From Candidatus Nanoarchaeia archaeon (lineage in GTDB: Archaea; Nanobdellota; Nanobdellia; SCGC-AAA011-G17; JACPNG01), in the NCBI GenBank assembly GCA_028714375.1, contig JAQTMK010000002.1, positions 21,812 to 85,811 of the forward strand: 64,000 nt of DNA, given 5' to 3'. Below, one piece after another: positions 28,129-32,457 of this stretch. The notes below the pieces were generated by a model that ran no database searches, was not told the origin of the DNA, and was given only the letters and a program-made list of their open reading frames with translations. Positions within the stretch are counted from its first letter, which is position 1. Every line of letters begins with the position of its first letter. The translations under genes and the position numbers were made by a program.

Positions 28129-28242
28129 ATGGATTTTGAAGAAAATAATATATCAAGAAAAAGAGGCAAGATTATAGGATTTATCTTGGCCATAATAGTT
28201 TTTATAACTATCATAATAATAATAAGAACATTTGTAATATGA
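28129..28242 (+). CDS. Mini membrane protein (37 aa), unannotated, translationally coupled to the next ORF
   Basis: MDFEENNISRKRGKIIGFILAIIVFITIIIIIRTFVI. Its TGA stop overlaps the ATG of the following ORF (ATATGA). Confidence 0.3.
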   Translation: MDFEENNISRKRGKIIGFILAIIVFITIIIIIRTFVI

Positions 28243-28481
28243 ATAATGAATTTTTTAAAGGAATAAAGGAAGGATTTCAATCTTTTGGAAATTTAATAGC
28301 TAAAGCAGTAAATTTTATTCTTTTATTTTTAGTCTATATTATTGCAATAGGTCCAACTTACTTAGTTTCAAGATTATCTAAAAAATATTTCTTAAGTATC
28401 AAAAAAACAAAAAAAGACAGCTATTGGATAAAAAAAGAATCTGGAGGAGAACCTATAGAAAATTACTATAGGCAGTTCTAA
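28239..28481 (+). CDS. Small membrane protein (80 aa) immediately upstream of the carbamoyltransferase. Possibly SxtJ-like.
   Basis: Single TM (VNFILLFLVYIIAIGPTYLV). It ends 1 nt before the carbamoyltransferase start. Family assignment is an inference from gene context. Confidence 0.35.
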   Translation: MNNEFFKGIKEGFQSFGNLIAKAVNFILLFLVYIIAIGPTYLVSRLSKKYFLSIKKTKKDSYWIKKESGGEPIENYYRQF

Positions 28482-28482
28482 G

Positions 28483-30246
28483 ATGTACATTCTTGGTATT
28501 TCTTGCTTCTATCATGATGCTTCAGCCTGTCTGGTAAAAGATGGAAAGGTAATTGCGGCTGCAGAAGAAGAGAGATTTACAAGAAAAAAACATGATATCT
28601 CATTCCCAGTAAACGCAATAAATTTTTGTTTAGATTATGCAAAAATAAATATAAATCAGATAGATCACATAACTTTTTATGAAAAACCACTACAAAAATT
28701 TGAAAGAGTATTATATCAATCAATTGAAAGATTTCCATTCACCCTTTCAATGTTCTACAAAGCAATTCCTTCATGGTTAAATGAAAAATTAAGAGTGAAA
28801 AAATTAATCAGAAAGAAACTAAAATACAAAAAAGATATTTTTTATATTGAGCACCATCTATGCCATGCAGCAAGTTCTTATTTTATAAGCCCATTTAAAG
28901 AATCTGCAATATTAACAATAGATGGAGTTGGTGAATGGGACACATCTACAGCAGGTTACGCCAAAGAAAATCAGATTAAAATAACAAAAAGATTGGTTTT
29001 CCCCCACAGCATCGGACTATTATACAGCACAGTTACAGCTTATTTGGGATTTAGTGTAAACAACTCAGAATACAAAGTTATGGGTTTAAGTCCGTATGGA
29101 AGAATGGACAAAACAACAAATCCTTACTATTCAAAATTCAAAAAAATTGTAAATCTAAAAGAAGATGGTAGTTTTGAACTTGATATGGATTACTTTGACT
29201 ATCACTATAAGATAAGGATGCCAAGCAAGAAATTCATAAAAGAATTTGGTCCAGCAAGAAAAAAAGAATCTGGATTAAATCAGAGGCACAAGGACATTGC
29301 AGCAGCCTTACAGTTAATCACAGAAGAAATAACATTAAAGATGTTAAATCAGTTATACAGGGAAACAAAATGCCCAAATTTATGCCTTGCTGGAGGTTCA
29401 GCATTGAATTCTGTAGCAAATGGTAAAATTTTGGGTAATACTCCTTTCAAAGATATTTATATCCAACCAGCTGCAGGCGATGGTGGAACAAGCATGGGTG
29501 CAGCATTATATGCCTATTACGCTTTATTAAATCAAAACACTAAAAAAAGAGAGGTGTTGAAAACAGCATATTTGGGACCAGAATATTCTCATGCTGAAAT
29601 AAAAAAATTTTTGGATGAAAACAAAATAAAATACTCTGAATTCAAAAATGAAAAAGAAATAATAAAAGAAATCTCAAAATTAATTTTTAATAACAATGTT
29701 ATTGGGTGGTTCCAGGGGAGAATGGAATGGGGTCCAAGAGCTTTGGGTTCAAGAAGTATTTTATCAAATCCCGCAAATCCAAAAATGCAGGAGATTTTAA
29801 ATCTTAAGGTAAAACACAGAGAAAAATTCAGACCATTTGCACCAGTAATTTGCGAAGACGATGCAAAAAAATATTTTGAATGTGATATCCCTATCCCAAA
29901 ACCAACAGATTTTATGCTTATGGTTTATCCAATAAAAAAACAATATCACAAATTAATTCCTGCAGTAACCCATGTAGATGGTTCTGGAAGGCTTCAGACA
30001 ATAAGAAGAGAAGACAATGAATTGTATTACGATCTAATAAAAGAATTTGGAAAACTCTCAGGAATTCCAATTCTTATAAACACTTCATTCAATATAAGAG
30101 GAGAACCAATCGTTTTGTCTCCTTATTATGCATATCGGTGTATGATGGGGACAGGAATCGATTATTTGCTAATGGATAAATTTTTGATAAAAAGAGAAGA
30201 TAATCCTCAGGATATGTGGGATTCTGAAAAATATGCTAAAGACTAG
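28483..30246 (+). CDS. NodU/CmcH-family O-carbamoyltransferase
   Basis: N-terminus MYILGISCFYHDASACLVKDGKVIAAAEEERFTRKKHD and the HHLCHAASSYF motif are the carbamoyltransferase (HypF/NodU/CmcH) signature. Full-length at about 587 aa. Confidence 0.9.
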   Translation: MYILGISCFYHDASACLVKDGKVIAAAEEERFTRKKHDISFPVNAINFCLDYAKININQIDHITFYEKPLQKFERVLYQSIERFPFTLSMFYKAIPSWLNEKLRVKKLIRKKLKYKKDIFYIEHHLCHAASSYFISPFKESAILTIDGVGEWDTSTAGYAKENQIKITKRLVFPHSIGLLYSTVTAYLGFSVNNSEYKVMGLSPYGRMDKTTNPYYSKFKKIVNLKEDGSFELDMDYFDYHYKIRMPSKKFIKEFGPARKKESGLNQRHKDIAAALQLITEEITLKMLNQLYRETKCPNLCLAGGSALNSVANGKILGNTPFKDIYIQPAAGDGGTSMGAALYAYYALLNQNTKKREVLKTAYLGPEYSHAEIKKFLDENKIKYSEFKNEKEIIKEISKLIFNNNVIGWFQGRMEWGPRALGSRSILSNPANPKMQEILNLKVKHREKFRPFAPVICEDDAKKYFECDIPIPKPTDFMLMVYPIKKQYHKLIPAVTHVDGSGRLQTIRREDNELYYDLIKEFGKLSGIPILINTSFNIRGEPIVLSPYYAYRCMMGTGIDYLLMDKFLIKREDNPQDMWDSEKYAKD

Positions 30247-31174: not shown

Positions 31175-31185
31175 AAATTAAAAAA

Positions 31186-31344
31186 ATGGGAAATAAATCA
31201 TTAATTGGTGAATTTTTTCAGTTCATTAAAATAAGAAGATCTTGGTGGTTATTACCAATTTTAATAATGTTATTATTAGTTGGAGTTTTGATAATATTTG
31301 GTCAGTCTAGTGGACTCTCTTCTATAATATATGCTTTGTTTTAG
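31186..31344 (+). CDS. DUF5989/SxtK-like small membrane protein (52 aa), absent from the ORF track
   Basis: MGNKSLIGEFFQFIKIRRSWWLLPILIMLLLVGVLIIFGQSSGLSSIIYALF. The R/K-WWLLPI...LL.G.L...IY.LF pattern matches the small proteins that accompany carbamoyltransferases, as far as I recall that family. Confidence 0.5.
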   Translation: MGNKSLIGEFFQFIKIRRSWWLLPILIMLLLVGVLIIFGQSSGLSSIIYALF

Positions 31345-31380
31345 GTAAAAGTTATTAAAATAAGGTTAGAATTAAAAACC

Positions 31381-32457
31381 ATGACTTATTTAGACAGAAA
31401 TCAAATAAGAATAAGAAGAAAAATATTTAAAATAATTGCGGTTCTTCTTGGATTATTCATTTTTTTATTATTTCTAGAAGTTGGATTAAGAATGTTCTAT
31501 CCTCAAACAAGTTCATTATTATCTAAGGAAGACTACATAAAACCAAATGAAAGAATTACTCTATACAATCCTCATCTAAAAAGAGAATATGCATATACGG
31601 TTATAACAAATTCAGAGAGTATGAGAAATGAAAAAGAATTTACATTGGAACATAATAATCCAAGAATTATTCTGCTGGGAGATTCAATGGCATTTGGGCA
31701 GGGAGTCGAACAGAATGAATCGTTTGCTGCAATTATTGAATCTAATTTTAAAGATCTAGAGGTATTAAATCTTGCAGTTCCAGGATTAAGCATTCCAAGT
31801 TATTATTCAAGATTAAACACAAAAGGATTGGAGTACAATCCAGACATTGTAATTGTTTCTATTTTCTTAGGAAATGATCTAAGAAGTATAGGGAACATAA
31901 CCGAAATAAATTATACTAAATCTTATGTATCTCCTAATCCAATTAGTCTTTTTCTGGCAAGGAATGTACATTCATTAAAGTTTATATGGAGATATATTTA
32001 TCAAGGTAAACTAACTGCCCCAATCGTAAAATTCTTTAATATAAAAACCGAATCTTTGGAGACAAAAAGAATAGTAAATAGTGAGGAAGAATTGGAAAAA
32101 AATCTTATTGTTTTTGAAACTGATCTTAAATATTACAAAGAATTATCAGAAAAAAATAATTTTTCTCTCATAGTTTTGATTATCCCCGAAAGAGAGCAGG
32201 TTGACAAGACAAAAATGGATGAATATCTATCTAAAATAAATGATACTCAAGTTGACGAAGCAGAAATAAGAAAGAAAATAAACAACATACTTGAAAAAAA
32301 CAAGATAATCTATTTAGACACAACTCCAGAACTTAAAAGATTAAATGTAAATAATACTTTCTATTTTGAAATAGATGGTCATCTCAATAAGGAAGGTCAT
32401 AGGTTAATTGGTAGTCTCCTGACACAAAAACTAAAAGAAGAAAACCTTTTAAAATAA
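31381..32457 (+). CDS. Second SGNH/GDSL-family hydrolase/acyltransferase-like protein with an N-terminal TM anchor
   Basis: GDS block IILLGDSMAFGQG, N-terminal TM (IIAVLLGLFIFLLFLEVGL), and a C-terminal DGHLN (block V-like DxxH). Confidence 0.6.
   Translation: MTYLDRNQIRIRRKIFKIIAVLLGLFIFLLFLEVGLRMFYPQTSSLLSKEDYIKPNERITLYNPHLKREYAYTVITNSESMRNEKEFTLEHNNPRIILLGDSMAFGQGVEQNESFAAIIESNFKDLEVLNLAVPGLSIPSYYSRLNTKGLEYNPDIVIVSIFLGNDLRSIGNITEINYTKSYVSPNPISLFLARNVHSLKFIWRYIYQGKLTAPIVKFFNIKTESLETKRIVNSEEELEKNLIVFETDLKYYKELSEKNNFSLIVLIIPEREQVDKTKMDEYLSKINDTQVDEAEIRKKINNILEKNKIIYLDTTPELKRLNVNNTFYFEIDGHLNKEGHRLIGSLLTQKLKEENLLK

Follow-up and report, generated by a model that had tools for sequence, protein, structure and literature searches.

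What does a carbamoyltransferase do in the glycosylation island of an archaeon, and why is it encoded among membrane proteins of only a few dozen amino acids (aa)? The question arose in a 64,000-nucleotide (nt) stretch of DNA from a Candidatus Nanoarchaeia archaeon (contig JAQTMK010000002.1, positions 21,812 to 85,811 of the forward strand), which was analyzed as a whole and is called the window here. A first-pass annotation of this DNA had described a carbamoyltransferase gene accompanied by very small open reading frames (ORFs) and two SGNH/GDSL proteins, and had compared them to the sxtI-J-K region of the saxitoxin gene cluster. All six ORFs were found at the positions that it gave, all of them on the plus strand, and its sequence of the 52-aa ORF was correct (Table 1). 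We call them U, J, CT (the carbamoyltransferase), SGNH1, K and SGNH2 in their order along the DNA, and they form an operon-like six-gene module. This module probably O-carbamoylates a sugar of the surface glycan that is built by the island. How the carbamoyl group would reach that sugar is a more difficult question, for which K offers a clue: its C-terminus belongs to a class of tyrosine motifs that is known from the transfer of acyl groups across membranes.

A conserved cassette of a carbamoyltransferase and membrane microproteins

CT matched the Pfam domains Carbam_trans_N with 291.1 bits (cutoff 24) and Carbam_trans_C with 230.5 bits (cutoff 27). Its residues 8-575 could be aligned to the solved proteins 7xb6, NovN, GdmN and TobZ (E = 1.6e-98 to 2e-79). 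The motifs HxxxH (HHLCH) at position 124, IDGVGE at 146, GDGG at 332 and KHREKFRPFAP at 444 were all kept; the HxxxH and Asp motifs are presumably metal ligands, as in TobZ. The earlier assignment to the NodU/CmcH type, to which TobZ also belongs, rather than to HypF-type maturation factors was upheld, because the only HypF-related match in the Pfam scan was HypF_C_2 at 11.9 bits (cutoff 27), with no other HypF domain.

We used CT to scan other genomes. The top 80 hits represented 80 loci and, together with the window and two further loci (L002 and L004), gave 83 independent loci. J was located beside the carbamoyltransferase in 74 of the 83 loci and K in 72. The SGNH family comprised 63 ORFs in approximately 45 loci, with zero to four copies per locus, and in 30 of 42 loci no more than 60 nt separated K from the nearest SGNH gene on its strand, the stop codon of one often overlapping the start codon of the other. 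This linkage across the 83 loci bears out the proposal that carbamoyltransferase, SGNH and DUF5989 genes make up a conserved cassette, in which CT, J and K form the core and an SGNH gene is often added. This triad, commonly accompanied by SGNH, is widespread as an envelope-glycan cassette of both bacteria and DPANN archaea: it is conserved in DPANN archaea, in bacteria of the candidate phyla radiation (CPR) and in many other bacteria, usually in envelope-glycan loci. One carbamoyltransferase ORF (L042:4001-6778) had 925 aa versus approximately 587 aa elsewhere, and its tblastn match spanned only residues 1-462 of the query; an insertion, a fusion or an assembly problem may be involved. The same locus carries four SGNH paralogs.

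The small ORFs deserve the closest attention. K had been likened to the DUF5989/SxtK-type proteins, and this identification was confirmed. It matched DUF5989 (PF19451) with 62.6 bits (cutoff 27) over model positions 2-49 of 49, and all 36 aligned relatives likewise matched. K has one transmembrane (TM) helix, and the only invariant columns in the alignment of 36 sequences were W21, P24 and Y49. Between K and its orthologue in L002 there were 31 synonymous and 13 non-synonymous codon differences, which shows that K is under purifying selection. We found no paper on DUF5989 in the searchable literature. Among the 36 K proteins, 13 also matched the Pfam model of the Wzz chain-length determinant weakly (best E = 3e-4), presumably in its N-terminal basic and TM segment. 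These matches are probably compositional.

The C-terminus of the K family can be written as [SA]-P-F-I-Y-[AT]-L-F-COOH. Across the 72 loci, Tyr was found at position -4 without exception, Phe at -6 in 68, Pro at -7 in 67 and Phe at -1 in 65, and 61 of the 72 proteins had the exact ending F.Y..F. The mean number of Lys and Arg residues was 3.7 in the 15 residues before the TM helix and 0.0 after it (66 proteins). Therefore, by the positive-inside rule, K is predicted to be N-in/C-out, with its tail facing outward. A similar arrangement is known from O-acylation systems, in which the invariant Tyr of a C-terminal FxYxxF acyl-shuttle motif, carried by DltX or by the C-termini of MBOAT proteins (PatA), is acylated, after which an SGNH protein that is anchored in the membrane on its extracytoplasmic side (DltD, PatB) takes over the acyl group on its catalytic Ser and passes it to the polymer (PMC12148441). 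DltX is likewise reported to be N-in/C-out (PMC12148441). By its residues, the tail of the K family matches this motif class, and its predicted topology is that of DltX.

We surveyed how frequent such an ending is among 7,519 ORFs of at least 25 aa from all loci. Only 64 ended in FxYxxF: the 61 K proteins, one MBOAT and two others that could be assigned to no family. The MBOAT is genuine (121 bits) and ends in VFLYFNF, so it served as an internal positive control. It lies at L076:206-1672 on the minus strand, approximately 100 nt upstream of the carbamoyltransferase gene and opposite to it; SGNH, K and J are likewise encoded in this locus, which belongs to a member of the Syntrophaceae. Thus, O-acylation and carbamoylation systems can coexist in one locus.

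J consists of an amphipathic N-terminus, one TM helix, a basic linker, an [ST]-Y-W motif and a C-terminal YYRQF; the family as a whole ends in an aromatic residue. The suggestion that this 80-aa ORF is an SxtJ protein stood only in part. J had no Pfam match at E <= 1, SxtJ (PF19588, cutoff 24.4 bits) included, and nothing significant in NCBIfam, and the other short or DPANN forms likewise had no match to Pfam SxtJ. We built a profile from four sequences (J and three relatives from a word search), which found 1,083 cluster representatives in short (approximately 80 aa) and long (approximately 125-160 aa) forms. The long bacterial forms beside carbamoyltransferases scored 25.1-37.4 bits on the Pfam SxtJ model. 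Aligned with these long forms by hhalign, the short J family gave a probability of 97.7% (E = 2.1e-12) over residues 51-126 of 126, and an iterated hidden Markov model (HMM) merged the two groups. By these profile comparisons, J is the C-terminal core of SxtJ, and the homology is limited to that core. The full architecture of SxtJ, approximately 125-145 aa, has two N-terminal TM helices in addition to the core; J holds the core, and the separate U adds one TM helix here and two in most DPANN loci. We also considered J forms of approximately 105 aa as a third, intermediate class and rejected them as overcalls from upstream starts with non-TM N-termini. Similarly, the YYRQF end of J was rejected as a general second Tyr shuttle, as no more than 28 of 74 sequences had Tyr(-4), conservation being limited to the aromatic residue at the very end.

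The 37-aa ORF U had been described earlier as a small TM protein, and it belongs to a separate conserved family. U itself had no significant match in the Pfam and NCBIfam scans. A phmmer search followed by an iterated HMM gave a family of 27 ORFs, all directly upstream of J, with U adjoining J in this way in 24 further loci. Most members have 56-79 aa and two TM helices, and many overlap J by stop and start codons. The 37-aa version with one helix is common to the window, L002 and L004, and the U of the window is a truncated, one-helix member of the two-helix family. U was confined to the DPANN clade of loci, always upstream of J. In one archaeal metagenome-assembled genome (MAG), a two-helix U and J are fused in a single 130-aa protein (L025:2514-2906); by the Rosetta-stone argument, this fusion is evidence for a joint function of U and J. 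We also compared U with the two N-terminal helices of bacterial SxtJ. Homology was unsupported: the hhalign probability was 22%, and U was aligned to the core TM helix instead. Therefore, U is a positional analogue and not a demonstrated fragment of SxtJ.

Both proteins that flank K were confirmed as SGNH proteins. For SGNH1 the Pfam match was weak (13.6 bits), and the residues G98-D99-S100, N130 and D290-x-x-H293 were invariant in 34 homologues. SGNH2 matched Pfam ALGX with 30.2 bits (cutoff 26.5) and Lipase_GDSL_2 with 32.4 bits (cutoff 32.9), and it has GDS at 100-102, GND at 164 and an AlgX/AlgJ-like D-x-H motif, D332-G-H334-L-N. The AlphaFold2 model of SGNH1 had a predicted local distance difference test score (pLDDT) of 94.2, with an N-terminal helix at residues 2-37; that of SGNH2 was weaker (75.9). 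In Foldseek searches of the PDB, both models matched SGNH esterases at a probability of 1.00, with CgnD as the top match and E-values down to 5e-07 for SGNH1 and 1e-08 for SGNH2. The two paralogs belong to one family, because iterated HMMs from either of them ended with an identical set of 63 ORFs. Of 58 family members, 54 had an N-terminal TM anchor in N-in orientation, and several members reached the Pfam model of the AlgX acetyltransferase. Regular expressions for DxxHP and DxH[LFW][NT] subtypes left 36 of 61 SGNH genes unclassified, and this division was dropped as too crude. CgnD (PDB 8a2n) is described as a slow 'protease/esterase' of the crocagin pathway, which also has a carbamoyltransferase, CgnI, and its authors suggested that carbamoylation might precede the action of CgnD. 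With CgnD as the best solved match for each SGNH paralog, a wider link between SGNH proteins and carbamoyl groups may be hinted at, or the match may be coincidental.

The six genes are closely packed. U and J overlap by 4 nt (an ATGA stop/start overlap), CT starts 1 nt after J, SGNH1 overlaps CT by 14 nt, and K and SGNH2 follow after 11 and 36 nt. The only sizeable upstream intergenic gap, 69 nt, precedes U and contains the TATA-box-like element TTATAAAA. We tentatively read it as the promoter of a leaderless operon transcript, tentatively because the DNA is 70% A+T and such strings are common. A scan for sigma-70 promoters and intrinsic terminators gave fewer sites than shuffled controls; such a scan does not apply to archaea. 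K and U are both absent from the public gene calls of this contig. U, J and K are not chance ORFs, and the U region is open in the frame of U only.

A candidate carbamoyl relay and its alternatives

On the analogy with acyl shuttling, we propose a relay in which the carbamoyl group would move from carbamoyl-AMP on CT to the Tyr of K, then to an outward SGNH protein and finally to the glycan. The proposal is tentative, and we put its chances slightly below even. TobZ makes carbamoyl-AMP from carbamoyl phosphate and ATP, and the cytoplasmic CT would do the same. J, together with U in DPANN archaea, would keep CT at the membrane and in some way bring it within reach of K. The invariant Tyr in the outward F-I-Y-x-L-F-COOH tail of K would carry the carbamoyl group as a tyrosyl carbamate, in the manner of DltX and the MBOAT C-termini. 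The membrane-anchored SGNH enzymes on the outside would accept the group on their catalytic Ser and pass it to hydroxyls of the glycan. Thus, the SGNH proteins would be transferases rather than hydrolases, and the two paralogs might serve two acceptor positions or two sugars.

Several points weigh against this relay. Enzymes of the TobZ family normally transfer the carbamoyl group straight to the final substrate. An enzyme that is carbamoylated on its Ser usually stays so for a long time, and serine hydrolases are inhibited by carbamates for this reason; the turnover of the SGNH proteins as transferases is therefore not a given. No MBOAT or AT3-like conduit was found in the cassette or in the 40 window ORFs that were scanned, and no MBOAT was found within the cassette at other loci, the one nearby being that of L076. 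J lacks an invariant His, Ser, Cys or Asp of the kind expected in a catalyst. With no conduit protein and no catalytic residues in J, the route of the carbamoyl group from the cytoplasm to the outside Tyr is unexplained. Moreover, the topology of J was ambiguous in the charge analysis. The K of the window itself ends in IIYALF-COOH, with Ile instead of Phe at position -6, and the Pfam DltX model had no match in the 36 K proteins at E <= 10. Among the top 50 Foldseek matches of both SGNH models, DltD, PatB and AlgX were missing, and the nearest proteins were the hydrolases CgnD, TesA and Axe2. Finally, 28 loci with K had no SGNH gene within approximately 4 kb, so the primary partner of K may be CT and not SGNH. 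The neighbors of K in these loci were still envelope-glycan genes (GT2, GT4, GT-C, PIG-L, exosortase EpsH and nucleoside diphosphate (NDP)-sugar enzymes).

Much of this would be expected if carbamoylation were completed inside the cell. The direct acceptor of CT would then be a sugar linked to dolichol or undecaprenol and still facing the cytoplasm; U, J and K would only recruit this soluble enzyme to the membrane, orient it there or couple it to the flippase, and the SGNH proteins would be external esterases that trim O-acetyl or carbamoyl groups. This explanation is quite possible, although we lean against it. CT is complete and canonical, as expected of an enzyme that acts directly on its final acceptor, and the CT-J-K loci without a nearby SGNH gene, the hydrolase-like SGNH models and the absence of an evident conduit protein fit well. 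It also agrees with the saxitoxin literature, where SxtL was proposed to be a decarbamoylase, and SxtJ and SxtK, listed as 'unknown', were said to act 'in conjunction with' SxtI. However, the invariant Tyr of K on the outer face would be left unexplained, and the only known role of its FxYxxF-COOH motif is acyl shuttling to SGNH proteins (PMC12148441). Nor would this model account for the fact that SGNH and K genes are often translationally coupled.

It is unlikely that the SGNH genes are independent of carbamoylation, encoding O-acetyl esterases or acyltransferases of the glycan that are co-located only through a shared polymer. SGNH genes are common in polysaccharide loci generally, and here they were absent from approximately 40% of the loci, with a copy number that varied from none to four. 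However, a single SGNH family, defined by one HMM, recurs beside K in both archaea and bacteria, often with overlapping codons, and the saxitoxin cluster has its GDSL gene sxtL. In addition, the 40 scanned window ORFs included no acetyl-donor machinery (MBOAT or AT3) that such SGNH proteins might use.

The glycosylation island and the origin of the cassette

The segment of the window from approximately 15 to 58 kb is a glycosylation island. It has two Wzx-type flippases, glycosyltransferases of the types GT2, GT4, GT9 and GT-C (PMT_2), methyltransferases and many radical S-adenosylmethionine (SAM) enzymes, as well as a Glycos_transf_4 initiating transferase, a fused nucleotidyltransferase (NTP-transferase)/DegT aminotransferase and STT3/AglB. 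The core N-glycosylation genes lie approximately 20 kb from the cassette. The label 'Agl island' of the first-pass annotation is justified, because flippases, glycosyltransferases and STT3/AglB are all present in the window. Glycosyltransferase, PIG-L, exosortase and NDP-sugar genes neighbor the cassette in other loci, and a GT9 gene follows it in L002 too.

Table 1. Positions of the cassette genes and of other features in the window
Feature	Position	Strand	Description
Kazal-type protein	4804-5823	+	Kazal-type serine protease inhibitor domain
tRNA genes	7153-7301 and 9749-9834		Arg-TCT and Cys-GCA 1 nt apart, plus Ser-TGA
Lamin Tail Domain protein	8443-9639	-	
Fused PNP_UDP_1 phosphorylase + phosphoribosyltransferase	13991-15265	-	424 aa
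Radical SAM genes	17899-19320, 22675-24138, 24172-25305, 33634-35163, 35165-36595, 43263-44324, 45097-46416		seven genes within approximately 30 kb
CDP-alcohol phosphatidyltransferase and LPG_synthase_TM-family genes	21109-22678	-	adjacent, inside the island
Wzx/MurJ-type polysaccharide flippase	26527-28059	+	Pfam Polysacc_synt 106.5 bits, MatE, MurJ; directly upstream of the cassette
TATA-box-like element TTATAAAA	28100-28107	+	approximately 26 nt 5' of the U start codon; read from the sequence
U	28129-28242	+	37 aa, one TM helix
J	28239-28481	+	80 aa, short SxtJ-like membrane protein
CT	28483-30246	+	587 aa, TobZ/NodU/CmcH-type ATP-dependent O-carbamoyltransferase, counterpart of SxtI, cytoplasmic
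SGNH1	30233-31174	+	313 aa, membrane-anchored SGNH protein
K	31186-31344	+	52 aa, DUF5989 (SxtK-type) microprotein
SGNH2	31381-32457	+	358 aa, second membrane-anchored SGNH paralog
GT9 (heptosyltransferase-family) glycosyltransferase	32475-33593	+	Pfam Glyco_transf_9 93.3 bits; 17 nt 3' of SGNH2
QueC homologue	37726-38445	-	7-cyano-7-deazaguanine synthase
Second GT9 gene	40454-41569		lipopolysaccharide (LPS) heptosyltransferase family
Second Wzx-type flippase	50431-51675	-	
Glycos_transf_4 transferase	51663-52667	-	
STT3/AglB-type oligosaccharyltransferase	52702-55323	-	Pfam STT3 66 bits, STT3-PglB_core 29.1 bits
Fused NTP-transferase/DegT	55444-57231	+	

The cassette had been called bacterial, and its presence in an archaeal island had been taken to suggest horizontal acquisition. 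Neither claim was borne out in that form. In the best 80 hits, at least the 30 closest carbamoyltransferases (60-72% identity) all came from MAGs of DPANN archaea, and a rough neighbor-joining tree of these hits, which carries no support values, placed the CT of the window inside one large DPANN clade with CPR bacteria as the nearest outgroup. The U family and the split of U and J are specific to the DPANN clade of loci, and the GC content of the 28-32 kb segment (0.28-0.30) equals that of the rest of the window. A recent acquisition by this archaeon is thus very unlikely, even though the same cassette is present in many bacteria and a few bacterial-labelled sequences (Patescibacteria, Fibrobacteria and Saccharibacteria) are nested in the archaeal clade. 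These nested sequences and the CPR outgroup do imply inter-domain exchange at some time, and an older exchange of DPANN archaea with CPR or other bacteria is plausible.

That the module tailors a small-molecule secondary metabolite can scarcely be entertained: the only named homologous block is the saxitoxin cluster, and the closest solved SGNH protein comes from the crocagin pathway with its carbamoyltransferase, but the window has no polyketide synthase, nonribosomal peptide synthetase, amidinotransferase or other sxt-type genes, the neighbors are a flippase, glycosyltransferases and AglB, the related loci are also glycan loci, and DPANN genomes are minimal.

Other features of the island were observed along the way. 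Its seven radical SAM genes include four with B12-binding domains, which places these in class B (typically methyltransferases), and one of the SPASM type; the same radical SAM neighbors lie downstream of the cassette in L002. Such an unusual density suggests that the glycan is extensively C-methylated or otherwise tailored by radical chemistry. Two GT9 genes of the LPS heptosyltransferase family are present, one of them directly downstream of the cassette. The LPS core of Pseudomonas carries a carbamoylated heptose, and a heptose-like acceptor for carbamoylation is a speculative idea here. The QueC homologue is encoded between glycosyltransferase genes of the island, and an LPG_synthase_TM gene, such as the one found inside the island, also neighbors the cassette in L004. 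The PNP_UDP_1 protein is an unusual fusion of nucleoside-salvage enzymes. The Kazal-type and Lamin Tail domains, typically associated with eukaryotes or surfaces, are present here in a DPANN genome.

Among the loci compared, seven MAGs labelled 'uncultured Methanosarcinales archaeon' (L022, which is OZ246410.1, a complete 774-kb chromosome, and L005, L010, L012, L016, L031 and L038) had the DPANN-type cassette with the U/J split, and they clustered with Woesearchaeota and Nanoarchaeota. The Methanosarcinales labels of these MAGs are probably wrong.

Implications and comparison with known systems

The association of sxtI, J, K and L, and of DUF5989 and SxtJ genes, is already known, and the cassette of the window is one more member, found in a new host. 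To judge from the searchable literature, two things are unreported: the split between U and J, and the presence of an acyl-shuttle-type motif in DUF5989 proteins. Searches of that literature for carbamoylated O-antigens or archaeal N-glycans, and for DltX together with a carbamoyltransferase, gave nothing relevant. SxtJ, SxtK and SxtL have been without an assigned function since the saxitoxin cluster was described, and the motif of K turns the gene association into a testable hypothesis. If the relay is true, a function would be assigned to all three, which could explain why SxtI-type enzymes need small partners. Carbamoylation would then join the chemistry of Tyr shuttles and SGNH proteins without an MBOAT or AT3 protein, and extracytoplasmic O-carbamoylated N-glycans would be predicted on DPANN surfaces, where they would be relevant to episymbiotic attachment. 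In its most general form, the idea is that the DUF5989/SxtK proteins are tyrosine carbamoyl shuttles which, with SxtJ-like partners (plus U in DPANN archaea) and a TobZ-type carbamoyltransferase, would constitute a third transmembrane group-transfer system beside MBOAT-SGNH and AT3-SGNH, present in bacteria and DPANN archaea and co-opted once for saxitoxin. We regard this generalization as doubtful. Even if the relay is wrong, U and K are conserved microprotein genes that are missing from public annotation, and the U/J split is a clean marker of the DPANN clade.

Four known systems can be compared with the cassette. CT shares with TobZ, GdmN, NovN and NodU the same two-domain build (Kae1-like and YrdC-like) and the HxxxH, D and GDGG motifs. 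To our knowledge, those enzymes work alone, with no J or K partners, and their substrates are soluble small molecules or Nod factors. In contrast, the clade of CT is almost always linked to two membrane microproteins.

The NCBIfam model of Leptospira LA_2486 was aligned to residues 23-351 of SGNH2 over positions 5-325 of 326, at 56 bits. The cutoffs of the LA_2486 and LA_2490 families (NF047474 and NF047475) are 300 and 325 bits, far above this score, so SGNH2 is not a member. The two families are named after nearby Leptospira locus tags, which hints at a similar cassette with two paralogs.

The Dlt pathway (DltA/DltC/DltB/DltX/DltD) and the pairs PatA/PatB and AlgI/AlgJ/AlgX share with the cassette a cytoplasmic ATP-dependent activating enzyme and a membrane-anchored extracytoplasmic SGNH protein with intact Ser/Asp/His, encoded alongside. 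Dlt also shares a microprotein of approximately 50 aa that is N-in/C-out and ends in FxYxxF-COOH with an invariant Tyr, as does the K family, although K and DltX have no detectable homology. The cassette differs in having neither an MBOAT nor a carrier protein, and the group moved would be a carbamoyl instead of an acyl group.

The closest parallel by gene content is the saxitoxin cluster of Cylindrospermopsis, Anabaena and Aphanizomenon, in which sxtI (carbamoyltransferase, 612 aa), sxtJ (134 aa), sxtK (54 aa) and sxtL (GDSL lipase, 426 aa) are neighbors. The window has the same gene types, adjacent and co-oriented, in the order U-J-I-L-K-L compared with I-J-K-L. Its J of 80 aa holds only the core, with a separate U upstream. 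Two SGNH paralogs of 313 and 358 aa stand in place of one SxtL; by gene type and position the SGNH genes correspond to sxtL, which had been missed in the first-pass annotation. The same set of gene types is found in toxin synthesis in the sxt cluster and in the context of archaeal N-glycosylation in the window.

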